DNA of 64,000 bases, from assembly GCA_000004695.1 (NCBI GenBank), contig CM000151.3:1472001-1536000 (forward strand), given 5' to 3'. Positions 12,595 through 37,529 of this stretch are shown piece by piece. Positions within the stretch are counted from its first letter, which is position 1. The number at the start of each line of letters is the position of its first letter. A program made the translations under genes and the position numbers. This DNA comes from Dictyostelium discoideum (Eukaryota). A model generated the notes under the pieces. That model worked only from the letters and a program-made list of their open reading frames with translations. It made no database searches and had not been told where the DNA came from.

Positions 12595-12626
12595 TTTTTT
12601 AATTTTTTTTTTTTAGGAAATTTTTT

Positions 12627-12660
<34 letters not shown>

Positions 12661-13979: not shown

Positions 13980-13980
<1 letters not shown>

Positions 13981-14010
<30 letters not shown>
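13981..14010. repeat. (CA)14 / (TG)14 dinucleotide microsatellite in an intergenic AT desert.
   Basis: cacacacacacacacacacacacacaca is visible at 13981-14010. Confidence 0.9.
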
Positions 14011-14393: not shown

Positions 14394-17300
14394 ATGAAAA
14401 TGACAGTTAAAGATGATAGTCAATTTCACCTCTTATTCACATCACTTCCGCTTGATGAAAAATTAATAGAAGGTAAATAAAAATATTTATTATTATTTTA
14501 TTTTTTAATTTATTTTTCCTAACCATTTTTATTATTATTATTAATTTTAGAATATACATGTAGTTATAATGAAGGAGCTGCAGTTTCAATTGGTAAATTA
14601 TATATTTCACAACAACATGTATCATATGCCTCAAAGATTGGGTCAACACATGTAATTATCATTTTTTTTTGAAGATCTATAAAAAAAAAAAAAAAAAAAA
14701 ACTAATTTTTTTATCAAAAAAAAATATATAAATTTAGATTATTTTACCAATTAAAGATATTATTTCAATTTCTAAAAAGAATTCAGTATATTTATTCCCA
14801 AATGCAATTGAGATTATAAATCAAAAAGATCATAAATACTTTTTTTCAGCATTTTTATCAAGAGATTTAGCATTTGCAACACTATCCACTATAATTAGTG
14901 CAGGTGGTGGTACAAGAACTAAAATTTTTGAGGATGCATTATTAGCTGAACAAAATAGTGGAATTAAAAATTCAAGCGATGAAATTGAACATCCATTATC
15001 GGCTTCATCAAATAGTACTGGTGAAAATCCATTCCAAGAAACTCCAACTTATTCAACTTTTAAAAATAATTCAGGTGAATCTACAAATAATAATAATAAT
15101 AATAATAACAACCAAGATGGTGCAAATAATAATAGTAATAATAGTAGTAATAATAATAATAATAATAGTAATAAAGAGGATGGCACTGATAGTAATAGCA
15201 ATAGTAGTGATAGTAGTAGATTTTTAAAATCTTCACCTTCACCAATACCATCACCATCTAATAAAATGTTAGGTTCAAGAATTGAAAGAAAAGATAGTTT
15301 CGAATCAAATAATAATAATAATAACAGTAACAATAATAATAATAATATTAATAATACAGCTATAGGTAGTGAATCATTAAATGGAAGTGGATCAGCATTT
15401 AGCGCAGGTAATTTGGATACAACTAAAAGAAATAGTTCACAACTTGATATACTTTCAAATCATAGACAATCACTAGAGGCTACAGACCAAATTGTTGGAG
15501 AAGATGATGGCTCAATAAATACCACTACTACCACCACAACTACAGCTTTACCAACAAATGAAAATGAACCAGCCAACTCTTCTCCACCTTTTGAACCAAT
15601 TTTATCACACCAAGACTCTTTATCAAATTTAAATTTAAATGTAAAAAATGAATCAACAACAACCACCACCAATAATTCAACCAATAACACTAATGATGCA
15701 CCACAATCACCACTAAAAGCATCACAAACTATTAACCCATCACCACCTTCACCTGTACAACGTAAAAATGGAAATCATAATAATAATCATAATCATACTC
15801 ACCATAATAATCATAATCACCATAATAATAACAACCATAATAACGAACAAAAAGAGAATAAATCACCACCAAATGTTAGTCCAACCAATATGTCTAAAGA
15901 AAATCATGAAAAACAGCAACAACAACCACAACCACAACAACAACCACAACAACAAAATAATAACGATAATAATAATGATTCATCAATGGCATCAGTATCA
16001 ACAACAACAACATCAACATCATCAACTACTACAACAACAACAAATGTATCAACAAATGCTACACCGGCAATTGAAAATTTTTCAGCCGATTCACCAAAGC
16101 TAACACATTTATCATTATTTGAGAAATTACCAACCAGCGATAAATGTGAACATATAACGATAGCAGAATTTGATGAGGCACCATGGTCAACAGAGAAATA
16201 CCAAATATCAATCTCTGAATTTTATCAACTCATTTGTAGAACCGATTTCTGGGGAAGTGTAAATACAACTCACTCTTATACTGAACAAAATTTAACAGAG
16301 TGGAAACAAACTAACAATTGCTGTATCCATAGAAATATGGATTTCAGAACTGCAATCTCCTTTAAGATTGGTCCAAAGAGTACTAGAGTCTATCAAACTC
16401 AACGTTGTAAATTAAAAAATAAGAGTGAATTCATTTTGCAATCCACTTCCGTTAGTAAAGATGTACCCTATGGTGATGCATTCTCTGTGGAAAATCTATT
16501 GGTCGTACAAGCCATTGACAATAGTTCATGTTTAACAAAATTATCTTCGAAAATTAAATTCACTAAATCGGTTTGGGGTCTATCTTCAATGATTCAAAAA
16601 ACCGCTTTACAAGGAAATAAAGAGTTTTTCGTACTTTGGAATACAATGGTTAGAAATCAAATTGAAACTTATGTTTACAATAAAATGAAAGAATTAAAGA
16701 AACCAATAGTTGTTCCAGTTTCAAATGTTAATGCATCTTCAACTAATACAACTCCAATTAAAAAACCTGTAATTGTAGCTTCTGCTTCAGCTGGTTCATT
16801 ACCAATTAATTCACAACAACCACAACAACAACAACCAGTACAACCACAACAAGTACAACCACAACAACCAGTACAATCCCAACAACAATCTCAACAAGTA
16901 CAACAACAACAACAACAACAACAACAAGTACAACAACCACAACAAGTACAACAACCACAACAACAAGTTCAACAAGCACAAAGAGTAGTACAATCAGTTT
17001 CACCAATTTCAGCTATAACTTCAACAACAACAACAACAACAACACCAGTTTCATCCCAATCATCAATTCAAACAACACCTTCAGTAGTAGTAGCAACTAC
17101 AACTCAATCAGTATTTACAATTGAGGAAGGTGAAACTCTTAGTTCAACAATATGGAAGAAAATGTCTATTATTGAAAAGGGTATTTTAGCAGGCGTATTT
17201 TTCTTATTTTTATCATTACTAATTGGATTAACCATTGGAATCGTTTCAAATTCAAATTCATCAAGATCATTAAATAATCAATTGTATAGATTCTCAGATT

Positions 17301-17629
17301 CATTGATACTATTAGATTCTAGAGTAAATTCATTGGCAACACAAACTCCACCAGATGATGGTAAAGTAGTATACACTTCAAATATTGGTAAAGATAGAAT
17401 TACCGCTTTAAGAGATCGATTAGAATTGGCAAATTCCTTATTGATGAGAGCTCAAAGTATGGTCTCAACACTCCAAGCCGAATTATCATTAGAGGATATG
17501 AAATCTACAAGATTCGAAAATTATAATTATGAAAATAACAATAGTAGTGGTTTATTTGGTCCTATATTTCTTACAATATTAATTGCCTCTGCTTCTATTG
17601 TTTTTTATAAATTTTATTTAAATAAATAA
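14394..17629 (+). CDS. GRAM-domain + VASt-like domain + C-terminal transmembrane protein, matching the Lam/Ltc/Aster (GRAMD1) sterol-transfer architecture. Three exons, approximately 14394..14472, 14551..14651, 14738..17629.
   Basis: Exons 1-2 encode FHLLFTSLPLDEKLIE/EYTCSYNEGAAVSIGKLYISQQHVSYASKIGSTH. Exon 3 continues IILPIKDIISISKKNSVYLFPNAIEIINQKDHKYFFSAFLSRDLAFATL. Together these fit the GRAM consensus (F..LP..E.L..Y.C.L...G.LYIS...F.S...IP...I......NAI.I.T....FF.SF..RD). A long N/S/T/Q-rich linker follows, then the conserved domain shared with the 5294 gene (about 16150-16650). Two hydrophobic helices lie near the C-terminus (GILAGVFFLFLSLLIGLTIGIV and LFGPIFLTILIASASIVFYKFY). Introns are GT..AG and phases were checked. 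The start coordinate is ±1 nt because of an A-run ambiguity. Confidence 0.75.
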
Positions 17630-17721
17630 AATAAAATAAAATATAATAAAATAAAATAAAATAAAAAAAAAAAAACAAACAAATAAATTTTTAAAAAAAA
17701 AAAAAGAAAAAAATTCTTTAT

Positions 17722-18672
17722 TTAAAATGAAAAAATTAAATTATTATTATTATTATTGTTATCAATAACATCAATACTATTTTTTTGAATAACATTTTTA
17801 ATTTTAATTAAAATTAAACGAGAAATAATTATTAAATTATTATTTTTAGAGAATGTTGGTAATGAATTTTCAAAGTAATTTATAAATACTCCTCTTAAAT
17901 ATCTTTTCTTTGTTTCTGTTACTTTGTCAATTGATTCATCGATTAAATCATTATCAAATATTATTGATTGATCAAATTTTAATTGATTTAATTTAATGAT
18001 ATAATCTCTTGAAGTTGTTATACTACTACCACTACTTCCACAACTATAACTAAAACTACTAAAAATAATAAACATAATTGATGAAATTAAAATTAATAAT
18101 TTAAAATCTTGAGAGTAATTAGGATGATTGAGAATTATATTTGAAAATGTTAAACCATGACAATTGAAAAATTTTTCAATGATTTCACAGGGGTGAAGTT
18201 GAATTAATTCTTTGTCATTTTCGATGAAATATAAAAGTCTATGAATTGAATTATTCGATGAGATTGATTTTATTAATTGTTTTCTATATTTTTTATCTAA
18301 TGTTTCAGATGGGAGAATTCCCATATTTTTAATAATATAGTCAAGTATTGAGTAATTTGAAGTTGAGAATAATTTTACACGAATATTATTAAAGTTCAAA
18401 TTTGAACTAATAAATATTAAGCGTGGGTCGATTTTACTATATTGTTTAAATAAAAGAAAATCTTTTGTATAGATAATATTATTTTTTGGTAATGTTTTGC
18501 CAATGTGCTCTTTATTTTGATTAAAATAAAAATGATATAGTTTTGGAAAAGTGAGTAAAAATAGATTACATTTATTATATAAATCATATGAACTAAAACA
18601 TAACCAACCTAATCTATTATTATCACATTTTGGATGTTTATATAAAAATCTACAAATATTGAAATATTCCAA
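17722..18672 (-). CDS. Hypothetical protein, 316 aa, with no recognisable domain and a hydrophobic/Ser-Gly stretch mid-protein.
   Basis: The ORF is uninterrupted and starts MEYFNICRFLYKHPKCDNNRLGWL. Codon usage is typical AT-rich Dictyostelium. It lies only 45 bp downstream of the stop of the preceding ORF, in a different frame. Confidence 0.4.
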   Translation of the reverse strand: MEYFNICRFLYKHPKCDNNRLGWLCFSSYDLYNKCNLFLLTFPKLYHFYFNQNKEHIGKTLPKNNIIYTKDFLLFKQYSKIDPRLIFISSNLNFNNIRVKLFSTSNYSILDYIIKNMGILPSETLDKKYRKQLIKSISSNNSIHRLLYFIENDKELIQLHPCEIIEKFFNCHGLTFSNIILNHPNYSQDFKLLILISSIMFIIFSSFSYSCGSSGSSITTSRDYIIKLNQLKFDQSIIFDNDLIDESIDKVTETKKRYLRGVFINYFENSLPTFSKNNNLIIISRLILIKIKNVIQKNSIDVIDNNNNNNNLIFSF

Positions 18673-18716
18673 TGATTTATTATGATTTATTAAAGTGAAT
18701 TGGTAATTTGAAAAGT

Positions 18717-20243
18717 TTAATTTTTAAAAATAAATTTCACAATTTCAAAATAACATTTCCTAATTGCTTGATCAATTGTTGGTTTTGGATTGTTTTCAAT
18801 TTTTTTTAATTTGTTTTTTGATAAATAAAATTCAAATGATTTAACATCACCATTAAATAAATTATCAGGTGAGAAATTTTCATTTACAACTTGATCGTAA
18901 TTGGAGATAAGTTGTTTATTTTCATATAAATATTTAACAATTTCAAATTTACTTGTAAAACATTCAATTGGATATTTAAAATCTTTTTTATATTTAAATA
19001 TAAATTGTATGAAAATATCAAGGTATTCAATATCAAAAAGATTATTTGTAATATTTTCTACTACTCTTTCTAATAGTTTTATATTATTTAAAACTATTGA
19101 ATTATTATTATTATTATTTTTAATTAAAGATTGAAATTCTTCTTTTGATGGATTGGATGAAAGGCTTGATAAAATTATATTAATGTTGACATCGGTTAGT
19201 GAATTTAAATCTTCAGAGTAGTTAATGTTACACATTGACACACCTGATTTTAATTGTAAATTTTTAACGAAACCACCCCAAATATATTTGACAACTTGGA
19301 AATCCAATGGTTTTTGTAAATCACTACCATTGACCAAGAGAAAAAGTTTAGAAGAATTGATTTCAATAGTAGGATTTCTTGGGACAATGCCCTGCTCAAT
19401 TAAAAGTTTTGCAAATTCCATTGAAGAGAATTTACATGCAACTTGAACTAATACTTCTTTTGAAAAATTCGATATTAATTTTTTAAATTCACTTGTTGTT
19501 AATAAATAAGTGAAATGTTTAACTAAATTTCTTTTGACCAATGAGTATAATAATACTTGTAATTTATCCACACCACCATTAAGTTCAATATCTTTTTTAT
19601 AAAATTGAATTTGTTCTAAAAATATTTTATAATTTTCACTTTCGCCAAAAGGTATTAAATTATTAATTTGATTGGTATTATGCACTATTTGAGGACCCAA
19701 AGTGAAATTGAACATTGGTTGGTTGTTTTCATCTTTTTCTCTTTTTAAAAATTGAAAAATTTCAAAATTTCCATTAGTTGATGCTGCAACATTTAATATT
19801 GTTTCTTTATTTTTTAAAAATTCTGGGTTCGATTTAAAATAGTGGTAAATTAATTTAAATCTTTGAAATGACAATTCTTTATAACTTAATAAAAGATGGA
19901 ATTCATTATCTGCAACGTTGCAGATATTATCTACATTTTGATCTTGTAACCTTAATTGACAATACCAATATTTTGCAGGATTTTGAATTGCAACTTTAAA
20001 AAAAAAGTCAACAAAATAATTGAATACTTGATACATCTTTTTTTTTAATAAAATTCCCAAGTTTAAATCTTGTGTTTTCATTGACTCTGTAATTTTATCA
20101 TAGATACTATAGTCTAAAAAACCTCCATCTTTTGAGTCTTCAAACATTTGTTCATATTTGACATATCCCCATATAATTTTTGAAATAACTAAATTATTGA
20201 ATACTTTTTTATATAATTTATACATTTTTAAATTAAATTCCAT
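18717..20243 (-). CDS. Hypothetical protein, 508 aa, with degenerate ankyrin-like repeats.
   Basis: Several segments resemble the helix-turn-helix ankyrin consensus (..AIRKCYFEIVKFIF.., ..EFAKLLIEQGIVP.., ..KYEIVKYLYENK..). Confidence is low and no search was run. Confidence 0.45.
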   Translation of the reverse strand: MEFNLKMYKLYKKVFNNLVISKIIWGYVKYEQMFEDSKDGGFLDYSIYDKITESMKTQDLNLGILLKKKMYQVFNYFVDFFFKVAIQNPAKYWYCQLRLQDQNVDNICNVADNEFHLLLSYKELSFQRFKLIYHYFKSNPEFLKNKETILNVAASTNGNFEIFQFLKREKDENNQPMFNFTLGPQIVHNTNQINNLIPFGESENYKIFLEQIQFYKKDIELNGGVDKLQVLLYSLVKRNLVKHFTYLLTTSEFKKLISNFSKEVLVQVACKFSSMEFAKLLIEQGIVPRNPTIEINSSKLFLLVNGSDLQKPLDFQVVKYIWGGFVKNLQLKSGVSMCNINYSEDLNSLTDVNINIILSSLSSNPSKEEFQSLIKNNNNNNSIVLNNIKLLERVVENITNNLFDIEYLDIFIQFIFKYKKDFKYPIECFTSKFEIVKYLYENKQLISNYDQVVNENFSPDNLFNGDVKSFEFYLSKNKLKKIENNPKPTIDQAIRKCYFEIVKFIFKN

Positions 20244-20517
20244 TTGCTAAAAAAAAATAAAAAAAAGAAAAAAAAAATAAAAATTTTAAACTTTTTCAAA
20301 AACAAATTATTTTTTTTTTCTCTTTTTTTTTTATTTATTAAAATAATTAAAAAAAAAATTTTCGTCCAATTTGATGTTTTTTTCTAATTTTCTTTTTTTG
20401 TTTATGTAATAATAATTTTTTTGTAATAGTTTGGAATATAAAAAAATTAAATTTTTTTTTTTGAATTGAAAAAAAACAAAATTTGATCGGTTTAAAAAGT
20501 TTTTCAAAATATCGATA

Positions 20518-20590
20518 GCTCGATTAGCTCAGTCGGCAGAGCGTGGTGCTAATAACGCCACGGTCGCAGGTTCGATCCCTGCATCGAGCA
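20518..20590 (+). tRNA. tRNA-Ile, anticodon AAT (decodes AUU/AUC/AUA via inosine), 73 nt, no encoded CCA.
   Basis: GCTCGATTAGCTCAGTCGGCAGAGCGTGGTGCTAATAACGCCACGGTCGCAGGTTCGATCCCTGCATCGAGCA folds as a cloverleaf. The acceptor stem is GCTCGAT/ATCGAGC, the D arm GCTC/GAGC, the anticodon stem TGGTG/CGCCA with loop CTAATAA, the T arm GCAGG/CCTGC with TTCGATC loop, and the discriminator is A. The internal A-box (TAGCTCAGTCGG) and B-box (GGTTCGATCC) are present. Confidence 0.85.
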
Positions 20591-20623
20591 ACGATATTTT
20601 AAAATATTGTGAAATAGATTACA

Positions 20624-20634
20624 GGTTCAATTCC
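20624..20634 (+). promoter_or_regulatory. Extra downstream B-box (ex-B box) GGTTCAATTCC, 34 bp 3' of the tRNA gene.
   Basis: It matches the B-box consensus GGTTCGANTCC. Many Dictyostelium tRNA genes carry a second external B box 20-40 bp downstream of the coding region. TFIIIC-type boxes are established knowledge. Confidence 0.5.
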
Positions 20635-20699
20635 CACTTCTGAAAAAGGGAAATAAAGATCCTGGAAATTAAAAAAAAAAAAAAAAAAAAAAAACCAAA

Positions 20700-21961
20700 C
20701 AACAAAAATGCTAGTGGATTTCAAGTTATTAATTTAATGAGAACCAAAAGAGCAAGATACCCACTAAAAGTAGGGGGCTGGAACATTTGGAATATAGAAT
20801 TGAGACAACTGGCGCAGAAACTTTGGATCATAAACCAGTTCATCCTAGCACTAGAAACCAAACAAACAAACTCATCTCATCACAAAAGCTGGGAATATCA
20901 GATCCAAAAAAACAAATTCACATCCAGATACCTAAAAGAAAACTTAGACGAATGGAACAAAATAAGAATAAAAAAAGCAATTTTCAACAATAATCTCACA
21001 TCCATAAAAAACGAAAATGGACAACCACTTTCACTGGCAGAATGGTATACCACAATTCAAGACCAAAATCCACCATCCCTAAAACGGAATTCCAATCATC
21101 TCTAAACTTAAGAGGCTACAGCTATAATCAACTCTTCAACAACATACTGAAGATAAAAGACCCTAAAACAAGAGACACAATGTTTAGATTCCATGCCAGA
21201 TGCCTTCCAATAAACTACCTTCACAACAAACAATGCCCACTCTGCAAAGAAGATATGAGCAAAGACCCATACGGTCACCTGTTCTTCTCATGCAAGAAAA
21301 CAAAACAATTCATAAAAATAAATAAACTCAAAAATTTCATCTATATTACCACAGGCAAAGGTAAAAACTGGCACCATACAAGAATTAGGCAAAATAACAA
21401 TTTCATTAATAGAATAACTCCAAAATTATCACCGATAGCCAAAAAAGATCAAGAAGTGAATGCAGATTACGCCAACCACAGATTCCACAAAGAATACTTT
21501 GAATGGAACTATAAAGCAATAGACTATGATCTAACCAGATCATTCGCATATAGAAACCTAATGGCCCTTATCCTCCACAACATTTGGATTTGGATTTGCA
21601 ATCAAATATACAGTGAAGATCCTTTAACAAATGAATCACTATCATACAGCTCCCTTCTAAAGAAATGGCACAAATTGGCCACTCTAGAATACATCAAAAA
21701 AGCAAAAGATCTAAAAAACTTATCAGCAAAAGACCATAATAACTTCAAAGATCCTAAGATCCTTCTCACCTCAACGATCAAGCTAAGAAAAACAACAGCT
21801 AATTACTATTGTATTCCAGAATCATCTCTCCCAAATATTATATCTTTTGATCAATTCATATGATTAAAATAACCCTTCAGCTTAAATGATAAGCCTATAA
21901 ATAAATATTAAATAAAAACTCGTATTAACACAGATGGATATATATCAATCTTGTTAATCCA

Positions 21962-21994
<33 letters not shown>
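20700..21994 (+). mobile_element. 5'-truncated non-LTR retrotransposon remnant, TRE3-like and tRNA-gene-targeted. It retains the ORF2 C-terminal Cys motif, a 3' UTR and an oligo(A) tail, and starts ~110 bp downstream of the tRNA-Ile gene.
   Basis: The ORFs 20737..21105 and 21042..21863 overlap in different frames, which suggests a frameshifted degenerate ORF2. ORF 21042..21863 ends with CPLCKEDMSKDPYGHLFFSCKKTKQF, the CCHC-type motif found at the C-terminus of non-LTR ORF2 proteins. Base composition is GC-richer than the surrounding DNA. An A28 tail lies at 21967-21994. The position of ~100 bp 3' of a tRNA gene is characteristic of Dictyostelium TRE3 elements. Subfamily not determined. Confidence 0.6.
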
Positions 21995-21997
<3 letters not shown>

Positions 21998-22757
21998 ATC
22001 TGATAAAGAATTTTAAAATATTATATATTTTATTTTAAAATTCTTAATTAGATTATTTTAAAAAAATAATACTTGTATGACACAATATTTAAAAAAAAAA
22101 AAATAAAAAAAAAAATTGTATTATCTTATTTATACCAAATTTTTCTTTAACATTAAATAATTCAAATAAAAATCGACTCAATTAAAATAAAAAAAAAATT
22201 TTAGATAAATATTAAAAATAAAAAATAAAAAAACAAAACAAAACAAAATAATTAGCAAATTAGTAGTTATAAAATTTTGATATCTAACCCAATTTCGTTA
22301 CCAAATATATTTATAATTAATTAATTAATTTTTTTGACTTTTAATTTTAAAGCAAAAAGGAATTTTGAAGGACCGATTCATTAAAATTTAGAATATTAAA
22401 TTTTTTTTTTATTCTGAAGTATAATAATAAAAATAATATAGATACCCCCCTACCTCTAACTGAAAAAATAAAATAAAATCTATAAATAGTGGTAAGTATC
22501 TAATTTAAGCAAAGATTAATTAATAAAGTTTAGGTATTTTTTTCGGATTTTTTTTCTCTTTTAAAAAAGTAGAAAAAAAAAAAAAAATCTAAAATCTACT
22601 TGTTTAAATTTGTCATTGACCAATGATATAAAAACATAGATATTTTTAAATTTCTTTTACTTCAAAAACTTGTATTAATTTGAAATAAAATTTAATATAC
22701 TAACAAAATTTTTTTTTCTGAGTGAATAATTTAAAGAAAAAAAAAGTTTAAAAAATC

Positions 22758-24718
22758 ATGGAATTTCACTCAACAAAAACCGAAATTAAAGAACTAAATT
22801 TACAAGTATGTAAAGAATCCGATATTGCAATCATAGGTGTTGGATTTAGATTACCAGGAGATAACAACGAACTAACTGAACTCTGGAAAAATTAAAAATG
22901 TGTTTTCGATGGGATTCAAGAATTTGAAAATGAAAGAATAACAAAAAATTATTCAATTCTCGACCAATTTAGTAGCAATAAAGCTGGTTTGGTAAATTTT
23001 GAACAATGGAAAAATTTCGTCCCAATTTTTTTTGGTATTTCAAATTCAGAATGTTCAAATATTGATCCACAACAAAGGTTATCATTAATATCGACTTGGG
23101 AAGCCTTGGAAGATGCTCATTTAGACCTGTTGAACTACGTGGAACAAATACGTCAGTTTTTATGGGTAGTTTCTCAATTGATTATACTCATGGTTTAAGA
23201 GATAGAAGTGATTCAAAACCAAATACTCTTGCATCAAATTTTCATTGCCTTTCAAATCGTATTTCATAATGTTTTGATTTGAGAGGTCAATCATTATCAA
23301 TTGATACTGCATGTTCATCATCTTCAAATGCAATTATTTCAGGATGTAAAACAATCATTGATGGTTCTTCAAACATTTCTATATGTGGTGGTTCAAATCT
23401 AATTATTGATCCATGTTTCTCAAATTCAATTTCATCTCAAGGAATGAATAGTCATTTGGGTCATTGTATGTCATTTGATGCTTCTGCCGATGGTTATGTT
23501 AGAAGTGAAGGATGTGGAATTTTAGTTTTAAAGAAATTATCTGAACCAATTAAATATGGAAATAAAATCTATTGTGAAATAAAAGGTTTTAGTTCAAATA
23601 ATGATGGAAATGTTGAAAAAGGTAATTTCTTTGCTCCTTCAGTTCTTGGTCAATTTTTAAATATAGAATTGGCTTTCAAATCAACCGTATTACCAGATGA
23701 TATTTATTTTGTAGAATGCCATGGTACAGGTACACCAGTTGGTGACCCAATTGAATTAGAATCAATTTCTAAGGCTTTAAAAATTTCTATTTCAAGATCA
23801 CCAAATTCACCATTATTAATTGGCTCATTTAAATCAAACATTGGTCATACTGAAGCAGCATCTGGTGTTGCATCATTAATAAAATGTTGTTTAATGTTTC
23901 GTCATCGTAAATTGGTTCCAAATATTAACTTTAATAAACCAAATCCAAGAATTAATTTTAAAGATTGGAATTTAAAAGTTGTTACTGAAAAAATATCATT
24001 CCCAAAAGACAAACAAATTTCAATAATTTTGGTGTTACTGGTTCAAATACATGTTTTATTTTATCTGAATACATTGAAGATAATAATAACAATAATGAAA
24101 TGGAAACTACAAATTTGTTAGAAAATGACGAATTTTTAATTCCATTCTCATCAATGACAAATAAGTCAATGGAAAAATATAAAAATCAAATCGAAAAATT
24201 CTAAGTCAACCAAATGGATTTTGTTGAATTTGTTTCAAAACAAATTTGTACGAAAACAACTCAATTAAGTCAAAGATCAGTGGTTTTTTCAAAATTAAAT
24301 TGGGAAGGTTATAATAAAGAAAGTATTTCAACTCAATCAAATAAAGTTTCAAATTTTATGATTAAATCAATTGAACCAACTGTTGTTTTTGTATTTCCTG
24401 GTCAAGGTCCACAATTTAATAAAATGGGAATTGAATTATATGAAAAAGAACTTGATTTTAGAAATTCAATGGATGAAAAAAATGAAATCTTTAAATCATT
24501 ATATGGTTATTCTGTTTTTGATAAATTAAGAAGTATTAAGGATGATGATAAAACTTTAATTGATTTACCATCATTTGGACAACCTGCAATGGTAATGATT
24601 GAAATATCATTATTTAAATTATTAAAAAATCATTGGAATATTCAACCATCTTTCATTGTTGGTCATAGGTATTTATAATTTTTTTTTTTGGAAATTAAAA
24701 TTAATTAATCATCCAAAT

Positions 24719-24758
<40 letters not shown>

Positions 24759-27700
24759 TTAATAGTTTAGGTGAAGTGGCTGCATCATTTTGTTCTGGTA
24801 TGATAGATTTAGAAACATGTTGTAAAATAGTTTATGTTAGAAGTACTTTACAAGATTCACTTGTTGGATTTGGTAAAATGTTATCTGTAACAATTACTAA
24901 AGAAGAATATAATAAAAATTATTTATCACAATTCCCTTCATTAGGAATTGCATGTTTTAATTCAAATAATTCAATTGTAATTTCTGGTAATGAACAAGAT
25001 TTAATTAAATTATCAAATCAATTAAAATCAAATTCAAAACCAAATTTATTTTTAGGTGCAAATGTCTCATATCATTCTTAAAGTCAAATTAAAATTAAAA
25101 ATGAAATGATTTCTGGTATTGGTCAGTATAAAAGTAATGAAGCAGTAACTCCAATAATTTCAACTTTAACATGTGAATTTTTTAATCCAACTCGACATCC
25201 ATTTAATGCTGAAAATAATTTTAAAAGTTCAAAATCACCTGTTTACTTTAAAGGAGCAATTGAAAGTTTATATAAACATATTGAAGATAATAATATTGGT
25301 AGTGGTGCAGTAACATTTGTTGAAATTCCTCCTCATCCAGTTTTATCATTTTATTTAAATGAATTAAAACCACAAAATTCAAATCATTTTTCACCAGATT
25401 CAATTTCAATTTTACCAACATTAAATAGAAAAAAAAATGATATAAAAGAAATTCAAAAAACTGTTTCAACTTTATATTGTCAAGGTTGTAATGTTAATTT
25501 TAAATCTCAATTCAATGGTATCAATAATATGAATGGTATAATTAACGTAAATAAAATATAATCAAAAGATTTACAAGATATCAATGGGATTTACAAAATT
25601 ATTGGAATGAAACATATGAAGCTTATTTGAATAAAATTAATGGTCCACCAATTACAATCTTGGGAAATTCAAATAGTTTAACCTCACCTTTAATTTCAAT
25701 GACAACTTTAAATGATATTTCAAAAGAACCATTCCATTGATCATGTTGTAAACGGTAAATTTTATTTCCCAGGTTGTGGTTATATAGATAATATTTTAAA
25801 TCTTTACCCAAACCAAGATTTATTAATTGAATATTTAGAATTTAAACTTCCATTTATTTTAAAAGAAAACAAAAATTTTGAAATGACAACAAATATAACT
25901 CAAACTGCACCAAATCAAAATAATGTTTATTTTCATATTAAAGATCAAAAAACAAATCAATGGGTTCAAAGTTCAAGAGGTAATTTTTCAGTTTTTAAAA
26001 AACAATTTTCCAATTCTCCCCGACCAACAATAAATAAATACAATATTAAATCATTGAAATTAGAACATAACTATAGTCATTTGTTAAAATCAGATTTTTA
26101 TGATTATGTAAAAAAAATTACAGGAATTAATTTCAAAGGTTGTTTCCAACGTGTTCAAGAATGCTGGATTGGAGAAAATTATTCTATTTTGGTTAAAATT
26201 TCAACTAATAATTTATTATCAGTTCATGATAACAAAGTATTTTTAAACCCATCAATAATTGATAATTGTTTACAAGGATTTTTTGTATCATCATTTATTG
26301 ATCCAAGTGTTGCTGTATTTGATAGAATTGAACATTTAAAAATTTATTCTTCAAATATTCCAAATGTTTCATCAAAGTTTAATGATGAAGAAACTTTTAT
26401 TTATGCAATTGCTAAAAATAATACAGATAGTAGTTTACCAAGTAATTCATTTAGTGGTTCAGTTGTTGCATTTTCAGAGAATGGTCAAATAATATTAGAA
26501 TCAAAAAATGTTATTGGTACATCATTAGTACCAGTTACTGATTGTACTATACCAGAATATCCAACTGAAGATTTTTTTTCATTTATTCTGGAGCCAATTG
26601 ATTCACAAATTTCAATAACACTTCCAAATCAATCAGTTAATGAGTTTGAAAATGAAAAGAACTCTCAACTAATCGATAGTTCAATCTATAAAAAGATGAT
26701 TTCAAATTTATTATTTAATAATCTAAAATTAAGACTTTCAAACCAAATTTCAAAAGAATTATTATTTAACAATTCTGTTGATCAATTATTAAAATTATTT
26801 TTAAACAAAGCCAATTCAAAATATTCAAGATTATTACATTTTGTTTTTGATACATTAAAAGTATCGATAGATGATTTGGATGAAATTAAATGTGATTTTA
26901 CAGGTTCAAGTGAACAATTATTATTTTCAAAATCATCAAAAATCATTTTAAAATTATTATTCCCAAGACCAAACATGATGATGAAAATCAAGATACACCT
27001 CAATCATTATTAGATAGTGGATTAATTGATAATTTATTTTCAAAATTAAATTTTGATATTTATTCATTATCAATTGCAAAAAAAATAATTTAATCAATTA
27101 AACCACTTTTGGACAACCAAACATTAAATTTTGAAAGTTCTTTCCAATCATAATCATTTAAACCATCTTATTATGATATTATTGCATTATCAAATGTTTT
27201 ACATGTAAATGATATTCAATTTAGTATCGAGCAAATTAATGGATTATTAAAATCAAATGGTGATCTATTATTTATAGAAATACCAAAATCAATAATTTAT
27301 TATATAACATTTGTTAGTTTTGAACAATGGTGGATTTTTTCTGATTACAACATTAGAAATGATAGATGTTGTATGGATGCAGATAATTGGGTAAAAATAT
27401 AATCAGTAAATGGTTTTAAAAATTCAATAATATCAAGTTCAAATAATTCATCACTTCCATTTATAATTCAAACTAAAAAACAAGAATTATTATTTGAACC
27501 AATTAACCAACATATGGATTTTGATATTATTTTATATACTGGCAATAGTAATGAAAATTCAAAAATTAATGATTTTATTAGTTTAATGAAAAATGAATTG
27601 TTTTTAAATAATAATGGTAAAATTAATATAATAAAAACAATTAAAGAACTTAAAAATCAAAAAATTCAAGATGAAATCAAATCAATTATTTTTTTTTTAC

Positions 27701-28320
27701 CATCAATTTTACCATTGGAAATGAATAATTATAATGAAACCTCATTGAAATTATTTGAAATGGGTCAATTCTTAATTGATAATAATAAAACTAAATGGAA
27801 AATTGTGGTAATTTCAGAAAATTCTCAATCAGAATCAATTAATTATTTAAATTCATCAGTTTTCGGTGTAATGAAATATTTTGAAAATACAAAAATCACT
27901 GTTTATTCGTTAGATTATGATAATCAATCAATTTCAAATATTGGTTAAATAAACAATTAATTCTTTAATATTAAATTCAAATAAACATATTCAAATAGAG
28001 TATATAATAAGGGAAAATAAAGTTTACTCGGAAAGATTGTATAGAGAATCTATTGATAAAACATTTTCAGTAAATTTCAACAATCAAATAAAAGAAAATA
28101 TATATGCAAAATTAAATACATCATTACAATATGAATCTAACTAACTTTAATATAATATAAATTTAAAGAATATGGCGCAGATAGTCTTCATGCTACAATC
28201 TTTAAAAATATGATTGAAAAACAATTCAACCAACTGAATATTTTAACAACTTCGCAAATCCAAACATTAACAATTAAATCAATAATTAAAATTAATGAAA
28301 AAGTAACAAAAAAAAAATAA
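22758..28320 (+). pseudogene. Type I iterative polyketide synthase pseudogene. KS-AT-DH-cMT..ACP remnants carry multiple in-frame stops and frameshifts, and it is internally shortened.
   Basis: The N-terminus MEFHSTKTEIKELNLQVCKESDIAIIGVGFRLPGDNNELTELWKN is followed by an in-frame TAA at 22893-22895, where the intact paralog at 63421 reads LLNGFDG. The KS motifs DTACSSS, ECHGTGTPVGDP and SNIGHTEAASG are spread over at least three frames (frame shift near 23140; TAA at ~23267 replacing Tyr in ISYCFD; frameshift near 24040; TAA at 24203). The AT domain has FVFPGQGPQ and GHS/LGE split by an intact GT..AG intron at 24669..24768. There are further stops at 25079 and 25559. The DH domain has HVVNGKFYFPGCGY, the C-MT region has LSNVLHVNDIQ..LLKSNGDLLFIE, and an ACP-like EYGADSLHA lies near 28190. 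Total length is ~5.5 kb versus ~8-9 kb for intact Dictyostelium PKSs, so internal parts (ER/KR) are missing. Confidence 0.8.
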
Positions 28321-28466
28321 AATAAAATAAAGTATCAATCTATATTATTTGTTATTATTTGGTTTTGTACAGATTTATTTATTATTTATTTATTTTATCT
28401 TTCAGTTTTTTTTTTTTTTTTTTTTGGTCTTTTTTTTTTTCACCATTTTTTTTTTTTTTTTTTATT

Positions 28467-30593
28467 TTATAACTCTACACTATCAATAAAAGAAGTTAAG
28501 AAAGAATAATAATTACTTTCAATTGGATTGATAATTTTAAATTTTGGAGAGTTTGAATATTGTGAATATTTTCTTGTGAAAAATAAAAGCATATCATTAT
28601 CTACTCTGTATTTTGTATTTTGATTGAAGCAATCTCTAACAGTTTTATCGACATCAACTGAAAAGTAATCTAAATCTGGTGGTGAGTAAATAGTTTGAGT
28701 TGAAGAACCAATATTTCTATTTTGATCGTCAACCATCGATGGATCATGGTACAACTCGATTGATTTCTTCCAATATGATTCAATACCGAATTTATAATTG
28801 AAATCTGTAACCAAAGAACGATCATTGTTTGAATTTGTCTTATCTTCAAATTCAGAGTTTAACTTTTGATTTGGATAAAAGAATGATCTTAGTGTAATCT
28901 TTTGATCTGCTGAAGAGAATTGTTGGTAATGATCATTTAAAAAGTTGTGAGCTGCTAATTTCAATTGGAAAAACTCTTGATAAAATGTATTCCAAACGAA
29001 AATCTCTTGAGAGAATCTTTTCAAAATCGTAAAAGCTACAGAAAAAACATGACCACCAAAATCTTTATTAAAATCCACTGCATATTGTAAATAATATTTC
29101 ATGAGTAATGGTGACATGAAAACACTAAAATTTTGAATCGAGATTACACCTCTACCATAATATTCTTCAATCTTTGGATATTTTGATTTTGCTTCTTTAT
29201 AATTATAACCTACAATCGATAAGAGAATTAAAAGTGGAATATCAGGATTATCAATTGGTAATAAAGAAACTGATTGTTGTGGTGATGTTGCTGCTGTTTG
29301 AATTAAATAACCCAACATTCTATTGGTAATATCATCCAATGGAATATTCTTTATATGAGTCTTTGGATTGTCAGATCTAATTTCATTGAGTACTATTGTG
29401 AATAATTCATTCAAACCTGATTGACCACCAATGAATTGTAAAACCCTATAGATATTTGGGTAATCATGAACGTTGAAACCATCGTCTGGTATTGAAAGTG
29501 GAGTAATACATTCATTCAAGTAATTGATATTATTATAAAAGTTTGGATTTGTTAATCTAAGGATTCTTGAATTTTCAAATACCAACTCACTTGGTAAAGC
29601 AAAACGACATGATACTGTTATAAAAATTCTAACATCATTGAATTTAATTTTTTGAAGTAATAATAATATATCAATTTCAGATTGTGGTAAATCATCAATT
29701 ATAATATGAATTAATGGTTTTTGTGATAAATTATCATTTTCTTTTTTCTTCTCTGAAATTTGTTGTGGTTGTTGCTCACTATCATTTATTTCAACATCAG
29801 TATCTAAATTCTTTTGTTGTGGTTGTAAACCAGTTATTTTTAAAACTAAATTATTAATTTCATTTTCTAAATTTGTTGAATAATTATCTTGATTAAATTT
29901 ATAATGCTGTTTTTTAATGAATGATAAAAATAATCTTTGATCATCATTTAATTTATCTACACCTAAACTATTACGCTCTAAATCCTGTTCGGTCTCTGGT
30001 TGAGGTTGATCATCCAATAATTCATCATCGTCATCATCTTGTTGTTGTTGTTGTTGTTGTTTCTCTAAAAATCTATCGATATATAAAAGTCTATGATAAA
30101 GAATTGTGTTTACACTATCATTATCCTCAAATGATGGAAAAATTGGCATCTCTTTAAATGATAATATGATCTTCTTTGGCTCATCAATCATTTTATCTCT
30201 TCTGAAATTAATATATTTTGAAGCAGCATGGGTCGATGAAACCTCTTGAAGATGTTCCTCCATTAATCTTGGATATGATGAATAACCACTCATAAATTCA
30301 TGTTTCATATGTTGAATGATTTTCTTGAATTTCTTTTTCTTTGCATTACTGTCATATTGATGATAGGCAACTATTGATGGTGTATCTTGAATTATATTTA
30401 AAAAATTACTATTTCTTTTTGAATCTGGTGAAATTACAAACATTATTGATTTGCCATACTTATTATCTTGTGTACAAAATCCTCTTTCAAATTCAATAAC
30501 TGATTCTGAAAGACCTAGCAATTGACGTTTAGTTTCATATTCTTTAAGTTTTGCATCAAATAATGGTTTTAGTTTAAATGATATTATTGAATT

Positions 30594-30624
<31 letters not shown>

Positions 30625-31040
30625 GATGATGGTAAATAATTATAGCTTGTTGGTGTATTAAATTCATTCTTTTGTTTCTTGTAACCATTATCTGCAATTC
30701 CCAATTGATTATTATTGCTATTGCTATTACTATTATTATTATTATTATTATTAATTTCCGCTTCATTTCTACTCATTAATGAATTGTTTGTATAACCATT
30801 TGTATCACGAATACCAGCGGTAATTTTATTACTTGAGTAATCTTTTTGTTGTTGTATTTGCTCTTCTTCCTTTTGTTTTCTTTGTGCACCACCAAATAAA
30901 ATTCTTTCTTGTTTTTCTTTTTCCACTGGTCCTTTTTTTAACATCCTCTTTAAATACACTAAACGAGTTTGTAATACCTGATCATCTCTATCAAATGTTG
31001 ATTCATCAAAAAATAATTGACCTTTATCTGCACCCTCCAT
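28467..31040 (-). CDS. Large hypothetical protein (~857 aa from MEGADKGQLFF) with a possible P-loop NTPase core.
   Basis: The printed ORF starts 17 codons upstream. The N-terminal region is charged and Q/N-rich. The central region carries a Walker-A-like KYGKS (..FCTQDNKYGKSIMFVISPD..), a hhhhDD Walker-B-like motif (PLIHIIIDDLPQ) and a sensor-like IFITVSCR, followed by a long alpha-rich C-terminal region. No family could be assigned from memory. Confidence 0.45.
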
Positions 31041-31230
31041 TTTTAATTTCTTTTTTCTAATTAATTTTAAATATTCAAAAATAAATATCATATTAATATT
31101 TTGTTATTCCATTACTAAATATATGAAATAATAATAATAAATAATAATAATAATAATAATAAATATATATATATATTTATTTATTTTTTCTATTTTATTT
31201 ATTATTAAAAAAAAAAAAATTAGAAATACA

Positions 31231-31261
<31 letters not shown>

Positions 31262-31628
31262 GAAACTAATCTTAAAAAAAAAAAAATGTTAATGAAAATA
31301 AAAAATGAATTTAAAAAATGTGTGTGATTCCACTATGAAATTAATTAAAAATAATAAAAAAAAAAAAATAATAAAAAAATTGAAAAAAAAAAAAATAAAA
31401 AATAAAAATTTAAAAAAAATAAAATTTTTAATTAGAAGAAAACAAGAAAAAAAAAAAAATTAAAAAAAAATAATTAAAAATAAAAAAAAAAATGAAAATG
31501 AAAAAAAAAAGATTTTCTTTTTTTTTTTTTTGATTGATTAATATTAAATTTTATTTTTTTTATTTTATTTTTTTTTTTTATTTTATTTTTTCAATTTTTT
31601 TTTTATTTTTTTTTTATTTTATTTCTTT

Positions 31629-31959
31629 TTATAAATATTCATTTACAAATTGTTTAACATTCTCTTCTTTTGCTAAATCTTCTTCTACTAAAGTTTTTGG
31701 TTTTGGGCCATCCTAAAAAAAAAAAAAAAAAAAAAAAATTATATTAAATAAAATAATGATGTTTAAATTATAAAATCCAGGGATTCCACGATGAAAAAAA
31801 AAATTTTTTAATTATTTTTTTAATAATTACCTTTGTTAAAAGCACAATTAAAGTTGGAATTGCTGTTAATTTTAATGTTGGATTTGTTCTATATGGATGA
31901 TTTGGGTTTCCACTTAAATCCATTTTTTTTTTTTTTTTTTTTTTTTTATCAGTACCCCC

Positions 31960-31998
<39 letters not shown>

Positions 31999-32125
31999 TA
32001 AATAAATAGTTTTAATTACCCTTCTCTTTCAATTTGACATTCAATATAGGTGATATTTTTTGGTAAATTCTCGAAAACTGAATTTACAATTGGTTCAGCT
32101 AGAATAACCATTATTAGTAAAGTTT

Positions 32126-32159
<34 letters not shown>

Positions 32160-32196
32160 GATAATGATAATGATAATGATAATGATAATGATAATG

Positions 32197-32227
<31 letters not shown>

Positions 32228-32469
32228 AAATAATAATAATAACAATAATAAAAAATAATAATAATAACAATAATAAAAAATAATAATAATAAAAAAAATA
32301 AAAAAATAAACTTACAAACTTGACAATCTCTGCACCATAATGAGCAAGTGGTTTTATCGATACTTGAAATAAATTGAACAAAAACAGTTTCATTAGATTT
32401 TAATGAATCTTGCAAAGTTTTATCAAAACCATCTGCGTTTGTAACAACGATTTTATTAACTAAACCCAT
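31629..32469 (-). CDS. Thioredoxin-fold protein of the TXNDC17/TRP14 (Clot) type. Four exons: complement(32316..32469), (32020..32098), (31831..31912), (31629..31712).
   Basis: The spliced protein is MGLVNKIVVTNADGFDKTLQDSLKSNETVFVQFISSIDKTTCSLWCRDCQV/SEPIVNSVFENLPKNITYIECQIEREG/GNPNHPYRTNPTLKLTAIPTLIVLLTK/DGPKPKTLVEEDLAKEENVKQFVNEYL*. It parallels TXNDC17 ([52 protein letters not shown]). The donors are GTAAGT, GTAATT and GTAATT, the acceptors are all AG, and the phases are consistent. Total CDS is 399 nt. Confidence 0.7.
32129..32224. repeat. (GATAAT)16 hexanucleotide microsatellite inside intron 1 of the TXNDC17-like gene.
   Basis: There are 16 perfect tandem copies of ataatg/gataat in the sequence. 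The ORF track turns them into artefactual poly-MI and poly-HY peptides (32050..32283, 32125..32469 tail). Confidence 0.9.
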
Positions 32470-32499
32470 TTTAGTGTGCGTATTAAATTAAAAAAATTG

Positions 32500-32533
<34 letters not shown>

Positions 32534-34527
32534 GTGGTTTTTTTCATTTTTTTTTTTTATCAAATTAAATGAAAAAAAAAATCTGAAAAAAAAATAAAAA
32601 TAAAAAATAAAAAATAAAAATAAAAATAAAAAATAAAAATAAAAATTAAAATAAAAAAAAAAAAATCAGATCACGATGGTGAAATTATTTTTGGGAAATT
32701 AAAATTCTATGTATGTTTATATTCTGTTTAAAAAAAGTGTAAAAAAATAAATAATTGTTAAACAAATTTAAAAAAATAGTATTGAATAATCTTATTTTAA
32801 AGATAAAAATAAAATTAATAATAAAAAAAAAAAAACAAAAAAATTTTCATTGGTTTAAATTATTTAAAAAAAAAAAAAAATAGAGGGATTTTTATTTTTT
32901 TTTAAAAAAAAAAGAGGAAAAAAAAAAAAAAAAAAAAAAAAAAAGAAAAATTAAAAATTAAAAATTAAAATAATAATCTTTTTCCAAAATTGGTCATTTT
33001 AAAATTTGAAATCTAGATAAAATATTGATATGTTTTTGAAGTTGATCCACCAATTTGGAAAATTTTTAAAAAAATCTATAGAAAAGGCATTAATAAATAG
33101 TTTGTATATTAAATAAAGTTTCTGAAATAATAATTATTAATTATGGTAATTTTAAAGTTTGAAAGATTTTTTTTAACTGTTCATTTTTTAAAAAAATTTT
33201 TACTTTTATCTTCTTACTATTTATATTTTGATTCTTATTTTTTTTAAAATAATAATAATAATAATAATAATATTAATTTTAATTTTTTCATTTTAAAAAT
33301 AAAATATTTATTTTTAAATTAAAAAGGAATTGTGGGCATCACAATTAGTATAATTAAAAAAATAAATATATTTTTTATATATGTGAAATTAATTTTAATT
33401 GGATACCAAATACTTCTTCAATAACTCAAACATTGGCAATAAGTAGTAATAATTATAAAATTATTAAAATCAAAAGCCAACAAACGATTATGTTTATTTA
33501 AAATAAATCTGATAAAAAAAAAAAAAAATACTTTTTTTTTTTTTTTTTTTTTTTATTTATTAAAATAAATATATTATTTTATTAATTTTTATATTTTGAA
33601 TTTTAATTTAAAATAGTAAAGCCAAACAAAAAAAAAAAAAAAAAAAACAAAAATAAAATATAACAAAAAAAAAATAAAATAAAAAAAAAATAAAATAAAA
33701 ACACCATATCCATCAATATTATCTAAATTTAAACCACACACATAAAAACACAAACAAAAATTAAATTAATAAAATCCACACAAACTAACAAATAGGGAGA
33801 GACATTTTTTTTTTATTTTATTTTTTTTTTATTTATATATATATATATATATAAATATTATTTTTAATGTGATGACTTATAATAATGATGATGATTATTT
33901 AATTATTATTTTTAATGGTGATTTTATATAATTATAGATAATATATATGTGGTGTTGTTTTTGTTGTTGTTTTCAATTTTTTTAAAATTTAATAAAATAA
34001 TAATTGAATAAACGTGGGTACAATGAATTAAAATAATTTTTACTAATGAATTGTATATATGTGTCGCATAGAGAGATATAAAAAAATGAGGTTGATATTG
34101 TTGGTCGTTTAAATAAGGGTAAATGTGGGGGGTGATAGTGGTGGTGTTTGATTTTATACATTTTAAAAAAATAAAATTATAATATTGGTATCTCTTTATA
34201 TTTTATCCATATAGGGGAATGGATTGATACAAATTTATTATTACTTTTTTCTTTTTTTTACAAACAATCCTTTTTTTAATTTATTTTATTTTTTATTTTT
34301 TTTAAATAAAATAAAAAAAGAAAAAAAAAAAAAAAAAAATTTTGTCTTTTAAAAAAATAATAATAATTCAATTACTATAAATTCAATTTATTTGTTTTTC
34401 TTTAATTGTATAAAATTTAATTAAATATAAAGAGTTTTTATTTTTTTTATTTAATTTAATTTTTAATTTTTTTTTTTTATATATTTTTTTTTCATAAAAA
34501 AAAAAAAAGGTATATCCAAACAGTTGC

Positions 34528-34561
<34 letters not shown>

Positions 34562-34876
34562 TATTATTATTTTTTAGTTAATACACATTCCAAATTCAAT
34601 TAATCAAGTTGATATTTTTTTTATTAAAAAAAAAAAGAAGTTGAACCCCCTATCATATAATTATTGTTATTTTCATATTATATTTATCTTAATTTCAAAA
34701 ACCACATTTTCAAAAAAAAAATACCCACTACACACTACACTGTCATATATTCACACCGCTAAACTAATAAAATTATACACATACAAAAACTCACACAATT
34801 TAAAGTCACACACACCACAAATAATTTATAAATATAAAAAAAAACAATTAAGTTTATTAATAAAAATAAACTCTAG

Positions 34877-34924
<48 letters not shown>

Positions 34925-35097
34925 ATATAAAAGTTTTTTTTTTTTTTTAATTATTAATTTCAAAAAATATTAAACCATTTTGTAATATAAAATCCATCTT
35001 AAAAAAAAAAAAAACTTTTTTTTTCAAAACAAAATTTTTCTAAACATTTTTTAAAAATAAAATAATTAAAAAAAATAAATTAATAAATAAAATAAAA

Positions 35098-35186
35098 ATG
35101 ACAATCATAAGTAAGTTTTTAATTTATTTAATTATTTTTAAACAAAAAATTTCTATAAATATTTCAAATTTACTAATCAAAAAATC

Positions 35187-35217
<31 letters not shown>

Positions 35218-35464
35218 ATAATTTTTATTAGATAATATTTCTACATTTGGATCAAAAAATAATATGGCAAATGCAACTCAAAAAATTGATTTCCAAAATA
35301 CAACAAATCAATTAAATACATCAAATAATATTTCAAATTCATTACAATCCAGTGCTAAAATCAATACAACATGTGATAATTCTTGTAGTCAAAATGATAT
35401 AATCATAGGTGGATACAAACTACCAAAAAGTAGTGAATTACCATATGATTGCACAATTTGTTGA
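35098..35464 (+). CDS. Small Cys-containing hypothetical protein (~81 aa) with two exons, 35098..35110 and ~35231..35464.
   Basis: ATG ACA ATC ATA A|gtaagt, a 120-bp AT-rich intron, then ..ttattag|AT AAT ATT TCT.. joins in frame to the printed ORF (MANATQKIDFQNTTNQLNTS..CDNSCSQNDIIIGGYKLPKSSELPYDCTIC*). The model is weak and there is no homology inference. Confidence 0.3.
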
Positions 35465-35845
35465 AAATAACAAAGTGCTCTCAACTTTAATATATAAATA
35501 TACTTTATTTTAAAATATTATTATAATTTATTAATAATAATATTTCAAATAAACAAAAATTTTTTAAAATTATAATAATATAATTAAAAAATACATATCG
35601 ATAAAAAAAAAAAAAAAAAATTTAAAAAAAAAAATAAAATAAATTAAAAAATTTAAAAAAAAAAAAAAAAAATATAATTTAATTATTTGTATTTTTTTGA
35701 AAATAAAAAATAACCCTTTTATATTTTTTATTTGTAAAAATATATATATATAAAACCCCCCCCTTTTTTATGGTAATTATTTACAAAATATTTATATATA
35801 TATTAATTATTTTTGAAATATTTTTTTTTTTATTTAATATTATTT

Positions 35846-36928
35846 TCAAAATAAAATTAATAAAATTAAAATTAAAGTTAAAGTCAATGATAATGAAATT
35901 AAATAATTTGAATTTGAATTTGATCTTTTTTGATTAGTTTTACGATTTGAACCACCATTATAGTTTGGATTTGCTGCATCTGGATTTACAAGGGAACCAA
36001 CATCAGTATCACATTTTAAAGATTTATAGTATGCTGATTTTCTTTGATCAAAATGTTCAGAAGCAAAGCAATTGTAACGATAACATTCCCAAATTGGATA
36101 ACAATCTTTACAAGTTAATGGTGAAACTGATGAACATCTTTTATCTTTCATACATTTTACAAATGAATTTATAGCTTGTAAACATCCATCATGTACCAAT
36201 GTAGTATTTGAACCCACACATTGTTTGTGACCGTCATTATTGCACATACAAACCCCAGTACCACAATCACCATCAACATAACACTCACTACCATATTTAT
36301 CATTACGTCTACAGATTTTATGTACTTTATCACACTCATCACCATTGAACACATCGCACAACTCTGGATTACCTCCACATGGGGTTGCGGTTTCTCTTGA
36401 ATATTTAGCAACACATTCATTCTTTTGGCAAATATGAGTGATTGGACACATTGAGTCACGGTCACATTGGTTACCTAGTACTACTGGTGAGCAGGTATTG
36501 GAATTCTCTTCACAATAATGGTTGAATGGACATTGAGAATCTGATGTACAATTACCATTATTAAGAACACATTTATAAAATTTGCATACTGATCCTTCAC
36601 CACATGTTCCACTATGACCCTCACCACAATCATCACCATTCTTTAAGTTTATATCACAAGTACCACTAATACATTTACCAATATTATTAAAAAACAATCC
36701 ACATTCTTCATCAGATTCACATGGATCACCAACTTGGACAATCTCTTGACATTTATTATTTTTACAAATATTTGGATATTCACAATCTGAACTTGATTGG
36801 CAATCTTCACCAATCTTTAATAAACTTATTAATGGACATTGTTCACTTCTTCCAAATATTTCACTATTACTTATACTAATCAAAAATATTAATGATATTA
36901 AAATTATTATTATTTTTATATTTTTCAT
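35846..36928 (-). CDS. Secreted protein with cysteine repeats (EGF/Dickkopf-like C-x-C modules), a signal peptide and a likely GPI anchor.
   Basis: The signal peptide is [22 protein letters not shown]. Cys modules recur ([21 protein letters not shown]; [23 protein letters not shown]; [23 protein letters not shown]; [19 protein letters not shown]). The C-terminal [24 protein letters not shown] hydrophobic tail suggests a GPI-attachment signal. Confidence 0.55.
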
Positions 36929-37484: not shown

Positions 37485-37521
<37 letters not shown>

Positions 37522-37529
37522 ATAATATT

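Follow-up and report, generated by a model that had tools for sequence, protein, structure and literature searches.

A decayed polyketide synthase gene on chromosome 2 of Dictyostelium discoideum AX4 and its intact orthologues in wild isolates

The stretch of DNA analyzed here (the window) comprises 64,000 nucleotides of Dictyostelium discoideum (GenBank assembly GCA_000004695.1, contig CM000151.3, positions 1,472,001 to 1,536,000 of the forward strand) and is AT-rich, with approximately 22% G+C. Positions 22758..28320 on its forward strand very probably hold what remains of a type I iterative polyketide synthase (PKS) gene of the highly reducing type, now a unitary and unprocessed pseudogene; three-frame translation of 22700..28400 gives PKS-like segments that switch frame and are interrupted by stop codons. 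The published gene coordinates for chromosome 2 (PMC3188802 supplement) fit the window by one offset, +1,458,431, which is anchored by DDB_G0272420 (window 35846-36928, published 1494277-1495359), by the end of DDB_G0272406 (window 17629, published 1476060), and by the start of DDB_G0272186 (window 37530, published 1495961). With this offset, the place of the pseudogene on AX4 chromosome 2 is ~1,481,189-1,486,751, adjoining DDB_G0272416, to which the 857-aa gene directly downstream is 100% identical.

In a protein search that returned thousands of PKS matches, the best match of the stitched pseudogene protein was ACTFIW_011487 (P0001), a hypothetical protein of D. discoideum with 2567 aa (3573 bits), followed by proteins of D. 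dimigraforme (P0002), D. firmibasis (P0003), and D. citrinum (P0004) at 51-59% identity, with the remaining D. discoideum PKSs at no more than about 43%. The locus of P0001 (L001) is collinear with the window across the full 28 kb compared, at ~90-93% nucleotide identity and with the same flanking genes, in the following blocks matched by BLAST:

L001 1-8242, matching window 12499-20647
L001 9651-14381, matching window 22448-27113
L001 14589-15619, matching window 27117-28136
L001 17697-27887, matching window 28137-38227

Since the flanking genes are common to both, the PKS of L001 is the positional orthologue, and its intact state at the same locus supports the view, put forward in the preliminary description, that the window copy is a decayed PKS pseudogene. 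The gene model of P0001 has three exons, and its two GT-AG introns (L001 11932-12026 and 17645-17732) reproduce the annotated protein exactly, with the domain order KS-AT-DH-(degenerate cMT)-(degenerate ER)-KR-ACP. A second intact allele, ACTFIR_012430 (P0124), also of 2567 aa and 97.9% identical to P0001, lies in the same context in another assembly (L005). In both alleles, the methyltransferase motif I (residues ~1430-1445) is degenerate and reads IMIIDSKFT, where the homologues of the sister species have ILELGGGTC, and the NADPH-binding motif of the ER domain (SDGFG, residues ~1970-1985) was also read as degenerate; the methyltransferase and ER domains of the intact alleles are thus probably inactive.

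The ACTFIW and ACTFIR assemblies, together with an ACTFIT assembly described below, seem to come from the set of genomes in PMC12745789, although we infer the match of each locus-tag prefix to a strain. This set includes AX2-214; two diverged isolates, CR116C and OT3A, which are provisionally counted as D. discoideum because macrocysts with AX2 are still formed; and M4B and S6B, which may be cryptic species (PMC12745789). The ACTFIT assembly (L002, GCA_054883475.1) is 99.65% identical to window 18464-41080 (22.6 kb), with zero differences over 22700..28340, and carries the only other dead copy of the gene.

Lesions of the window copy were projected onto the codons of the orthologue through a piecewise alignment built from BLAST anchors. 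In total, there are nine in-register stops and six small deletions that shift the frame, besides two longer losses, one of 204 bp (in frame) and one of 2,077 bp. The five stops named in the preliminary description (22893, ~23267, 24203, 25079, and 25559) all exist and are in register with the orthologue, four more were found, and the "at least two frameshifts" mentioned there are six. These lesions, with the smaller in-frame changes, are as follows:

22893-22895 (+), nonsense codon TAA, orthologue Leu46 (TTA to TAA)
after 23125 (+), frameshift, -1
23267-23269 (+), nonsense codon TAA, orthologue Tyr171
after 23682 (+), in-frame indel, -9
after 24021 (+), frameshift, -10
24202-24204 (+), nonsense codon TAA, orthologue Tyr489
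25079-25081 (+), nonsense codon TAA, orthologue Ser749
25559-25561 (+), nonsense codon TAA, orthologue Ser909
after 25573 (+), frameshift, -1
after 25738 (+), frameshift, -8, with loss of the W-L-K that immediately precedes the catalytic His in the DH motif HxxxGxxxxP
after 26019 (+), in-frame indel, +3
after 26966 (+), frameshift, -1
27091 (+), nonsense codon TAA, orthologue Glu1422
after 27116 (+), in-frame indel, -204, methyltransferase region
27151 (+), nonsense codon TAA, orthologue Gln1510
after 27206 (+), in-frame indel, -3
27400 (+), nonsense codon TAA, orthologue Leu1594
after 27943 (+), frameshift, -5
27950 (+), nonsense codon TAA, orthologue Ser1779
after 28099 (+), in-frame indel, -3
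28136..28137 (+), junction of the 2,077-bp deletion (L001 15620-17696), with short (T)AAC microhomology
after 28291 (+), in-frame indel, -3

The 2,077-bp deletion takes out the ER and KR domains, half of the ACP (its N-terminal side), and the start of intron 2 together with the 5' splice site; the earlier suggestion that ER- and KR-sized segments had been lost is accordingly borne out by this single event after 28136, to which the 204-bp deletion after 27116 is added. An apparent +5 insertion near the 3' end was also considered; it sits beyond the stop codon and hence is no lesion. What is left of the gene structure includes three exon remnants, one complete intron, and the end of a second:

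22758..24668 (+), exon 1 remnant with KS, the linker between KS and AT, and the N-terminal half of AT, ending at GH(S)
24669..24765 (+), intron 1, GT..AG, 97 nt, placed within the Ser codon (AG|T) of GHSLGE, the AT active site
24766..28136 (+), exon 2 remnant with the C-terminal half of AT, DH, the methyltransferase-like region, and the structural region before ER
28137..28168 (+), 3' remnant of intron 2, 32 nt, ACTAAC..AG end only
28169..28320 (+), exon 3 remnant with the C-terminal half of ACP (EYGADSL) and the original TAA stop at 28318-28320

The stitched translation of these exons (1809 aa) contains the Pfam domains KS-N, KS-C, KS C-terminal extension, AT, and PS-DH in canonical order, and the motifs DTACSSS (with the KS Cys), HGTGT, GHTE, and GHSLGE can still be read; methyltransferase, ER, KR, and ACP were not found by Pfam in this translation. 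The origin from a type I iterative PKS can therefore still be recognized, but the stops, the frameshifts, and the loss of KR and ACP set the locus apart from functional members of the family. Because of its stops, frameshifts, and deletions taken together, the pseudogene cannot encode a PKS. None of the lesions occurs in either intact allele, and all of them occur in L002, the sole further dead copy; with this all-or-none sharing among copies, the order of lesions, that is, the "stepwise" death that had been proposed, cannot be read. All nine nonsense codons are TAA, and on the branch leading to the window T>A, C>T, and A>T outnumber the other classes of substitution, both of which may reflect an AT-biased mutation spectrum.

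Intron 1 had been placed at 24669..24768 in the preliminary description, where it was correctly described as an in-phase GT..AG intron, with its end set 3 nt too far, the true end being 24765. An intron occupies this codon in both intact alleles as well, so the intron is inherited, and its phase is kept in the window. Its donor reads GTATTT in the window vs. GTATGT in L001 and GTATGC in L005, having lost the G at +5. For the earlier description of the intron as spliceable, the sequence gives the GT..AG boundaries, the phase, and this changed donor. The intron is absent from the D. citrinum homologue and from the PKS paralogue that begins at 63421 of the window, and its retention in the pseudogene is likely a matter of simple inheritance with no special role. 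The presence of this ancestral intron and of the intron 2 remnant, at the locus of the orthologue and within a 28-kb collinear block, characterizes the pseudogene as unprocessed.

Upstream of the pseudogene, homology with L001 is interrupted between a tRNA gene and the PKS start codon. The features of this interval are:

20518..20590 (+), tRNA-Ile(AAU) gene found with ARAGORN, conserved in L001, L005, and D. firmibasis
20648..22447 (+), lineage-specific insertion of ~1.8 kb, with L001 homology stopping at 20647 and resuming at 22448
20737..21105 and 21042..21863 (+), retrotransposon open reading frames (ORFs)

The insertion starts 58 bp downstream of the tRNA-Ile gene and ends ~310 bp upstream of the PKS ATG. 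The 273-aa ORF in it matches the C-terminal ends of proteins of 1189-1448 aa that bear Exo_endo_phos and RVT_1 domains, Pfam found nothing in either of the two ORFs themselves, and L001 has no such retrotransposon ORF in the corresponding interval. Non-LTR retrotransposons of the TRE3 type in Dictyostelium integrate downstream of tRNA genes. The homology to ORF2 (APE and RT) and the place downstream of a tRNA gene are what is expected of a tRNA-targeted element, and the insertion is best read as a 5'-truncated 3' part of a non-LTR retrotransposon of the APE-RT type, TRE3-like by position. The description of this region as a tRNA/TRE3 insertion hotspot was right about the tRNA and the retrotransposon fragment, while the hotspot itself comes down to one lineage-specific insertion behind a conserved tRNA-Ile gene.

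Selection on the gene was assessed from 1752 codons aligned in the window, L001, and L005, with branch counts made by parsimony; for L005, the comparison takes in 5,640 nt from the gene start, a length that includes the deletion breakpoint. The two intact alleles differ by Ks 0.0645 and Ka 0.0102, and with a Ka/Ks of 0.157 they are under purifying selection, whereas the window and L001 differ by Ks 0.143 and Ka 0.029 (Ka/Ks 0.20). On the window branch, synonymous changes number 98, missense changes 102, and nonsense changes 10 (dN/dS 0.28), the corresponding counts being 33, 15, and 0 on the L001 branch (dN/dS 0.11) and 27, 26, and 0 on the L005 branch (dN/dS 0.24); indels in the intact lineages are in-frame only. 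When amino-acid changes were polarized with the three sister-species homologues as outgroups, 46 of the differences unique to the window were assigned to its own lineage and 10 to the stem of the intact pair (49 vs. 16 in the two-way count). Overall, derived amino-acid changes are about three times more numerous in the window lineage. Disabling mutations and relaxed constraint are therefore found together on the pseudogene's own lineage. Additionally, the closest PKS of AX4 or AX4-like strains is at most about 43% identical and the orthologues are intact and constrained, their function being judged from sequence, which is the pattern of a unitary loss.

As for the time of death, a two-rate model, in which omega is 0.157 and then 1, gives a neutral phase of ~0.014 substitutions per site, and the nine nonsense codons, with a 6.65% nonsense share of random changes, give ~0.026. 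Relative to a midpoint-rooted lineage length of ~0.06, the gene would have died during approximately the last quarter to two-fifths of the period that began with the divergence from the wild isolates. Constraint would thus have been lost well after that divergence, with subsequent decay by AT-biased substitution and deletion, and the retrotransposon fragment ~310 bp before the ATG may have struck first, causing a loss of expression, or may have come afterward, either order being compatible with this sequence of events.

In D. firmibasis, the interval between the tRNA gene and the DDB_G0272416 orthologue is ~0.8 kb and has no PKS, and from this orthologue to the next gene (L007 13768-15198) the tRNA-Ile gene is the only one present, as judged from the gene table and a tRNA scan; the homologue of this species is on a different contig from its syntenic block. 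Because the PKS is missing from the D. firmibasis interval and the D. citrinum homologue lies elsewhere, the PKS reached this location within the D. discoideum clade. Selection then maintained the gene, whose later death took place in the lineage of the laboratory strain. In the D. citrinum genome, the homologue (L006 6001-12353) sits between a UbiA-type prenyltransferase and two SAM methyltransferases, and the region (L006 2658-14575) looks like a small biosynthetic gene cluster. Also, at the AT active site of P0002, P0003, and P0004, a Cys replaces the nucleophilic Ser (GHC[F/L]GE vs. GHSLGE).

Other explanations of the locus were weighed against a unitary pseudogene. The one that survives best is compatible with it and holds that the dead locus has been kept as a transcribed non-coding or regulatory RNA or for a short N-terminal peptide, which agrees with the presence still of the ATG, of the boundaries of the intron, and of ~310 bp of promoter-proximal sequence; however, no conservation beyond neutral decay was found, the lesions are evenly spread, a deletion bias and the weakened intron 1 donor are evident, and the region further upstream has been replaced by the retrotransposon fragment, so that such retention is improbable. 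It is less probable still that the locus was a duplicated pseudogene, a copy of a paralogue already dead on arrival. The arrival within the D. discoideum clade, with the PKS missing from the syntenic interval of D. firmibasis and the nearest sister-species homologues located elsewhere, would suit such an origin, but both wild isolates have an intact copy at this locus, purifying selection acts on these copies (Ka/Ks 0.157), the dN/dS of 0.28 on the window branch shows constraint through most of its history, and the AX4 lineage is without a close paralogue.

The possibility of a live gene, in which extra unrecognized introns remove every stop and frameshift, can be given next to no credence. 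In the ACTFIT assembly, the automated annotation does cover the region, through added introns, with two gene models of 826 aa and 623 aa (L002 12893-18279). However, the orthologue has just two introns, and all nine stops and all six frameshifts fall in its exons, at least ten new introns would be required, and the product would still be short of the ER, the KR, some of the DH motif, and one half of the ACP; even the automated models fail to give a single PKS. The additional introns that were to restore a continuous reading frame, and with it overturn the pseudogene call, are accordingly not found in the orthologue, where the site of every lesion is exonic. The 826-aa and 623-aa models are artefacts from invented introns, and such two-gene calls on a pseudogene could make PKS tallies too high when genomes are compared. 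That the lesions arose by sequencing or assembly error in this AT-rich, homopolymer-rich region has a similarly negligible probability, for although several of the 1-bp deletions are close to homopolymers, nine lesions are base changes that create TAA and another two are large deletions, the genomes of PMC12745789, the presumed source of L002, were assembled from long and short reads, and the lesions are not sequencing errors because the independent L002 assembly is base-for-base identical across 5.6 kb.

Several points weigh against the reading of a unitary pseudogene that died late in the laboratory lineage, or reduce its reach. The dN/dS of the window branch, at 0.28, is far below 1, and the neutral phase is short relative to the branch, its length depending on a simple two-rate model. 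The allele comparison spans the AX4 lineage and two wild isolates, and the case is built on DNA sequence; residual transcription, intron 1 splicing, and nonsense-mediated decay may each occur. The novelty is also limited: PMC9618038 reports 40 PKS genes for D. discoideum AX4, besides five pseudogenes whose frames are broken by stop codons, the published table of the 40 functional genes has no entry at this locus, and the locus would be among the five named PKS pseudogenes. The PKS family is curated by dictyBase. The names pks1-pks45 have gaps at pks4, 11, 12, 20, and 43, and from the order along the chromosome we take the locus to be probably pks11 or pks12. The pseudogene is then already known in kind, and the sole new element is its intact, selectively maintained orthologue in wild isolates.

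Another PKS of the window, called an intact paralog in the preliminary description, begins at 63421, with only its first exon (181 aa) inside the window, open and ending at a GT donor. In a near-identical assembly (L004 1-8123), this exon is followed by an intron of 82 nt and at least 2511 further open codons, so that in this near-identical strain the frame runs on for 2,690 codons or more. In a wild isolate, the same PKS (L003 11953-20363) has a 3037-aa model, with an extra 120-aa N-terminal duplicate just upstream (L003 10001-10363). This PKS is not in the published table of 40 AX4 PKS genes, and in AX4 it may be either intact or one of the five pseudogenes. Between the two PKS loci, window 50912-61510 contains four similar tandem ORFs of 439-495 aa on the minus strand, having 85-90% DNA identity among themselves in the wild-isolate comparison; the ORFs at 50912-52243 and 60191-61510 are annotated as Glyco_transf_17 in the near-identical assembly.

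Regarding its meaning, the dead allele is possibly a loss-of-function variant within one biological species, an idea to be held tentatively, with AX2 still forming macrocysts with CR116C and OT3A (PMC12745789). If this is true, and if ACTFIW and ACTFIR correspond to CR116C and OT3A, the laboratory lineage would lack a polyketide made by its tropical relatives and would be a natural knockout for finding that polyketide and its ecological role. For genome annotation, the result has little weight, since the AX4 PKS pseudogenes are already curated and published. The orthologues of the wild isolates offer a clean case, open to rough dating, of birth-and-death turnover, the process by which the large PKS repertoire of Dictyostelium is shaped, as well as a template for enzyme resurrection or metabolome comparison.

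The closest known systems include the intact alleles ACTFIW_011487 and ACTFIR_012430, which have in common with the pseudogene the locus, the flanking genes, and the two intron positions, with 93% amino-acid and 95% coding-nucleotide identity; unlike the pseudogene, they have none of the nine stops, six frameshifts, or two large deletions and keep the ER, the KR, and the full ACP. The homologues of D. dimigraforme, D. firmibasis, and D. citrinum (P0002, P0003, and P0004) belong to the same PKS subfamily, with the architecture KS-AT-DH-cMT-KR-ACP; in contrast to the dead PKS, they are non-syntenic, have no ER domain, and have an intact cMT motif. The retrotransposon fragment resembles TRE3-type elements in the homology to the C-terminal part of an APE-RT ORF2 and in its place behind a tRNA gene, and differs from the full elements in being only a 5'-truncated piece of 1.8 kb from a single insertion. 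Finally, the five annotated PKS pseudogenes of AX4 are like the window locus in being in the same genome and gene family, in having a frame interrupted by stops, and in standing outside the list of 40 genes.

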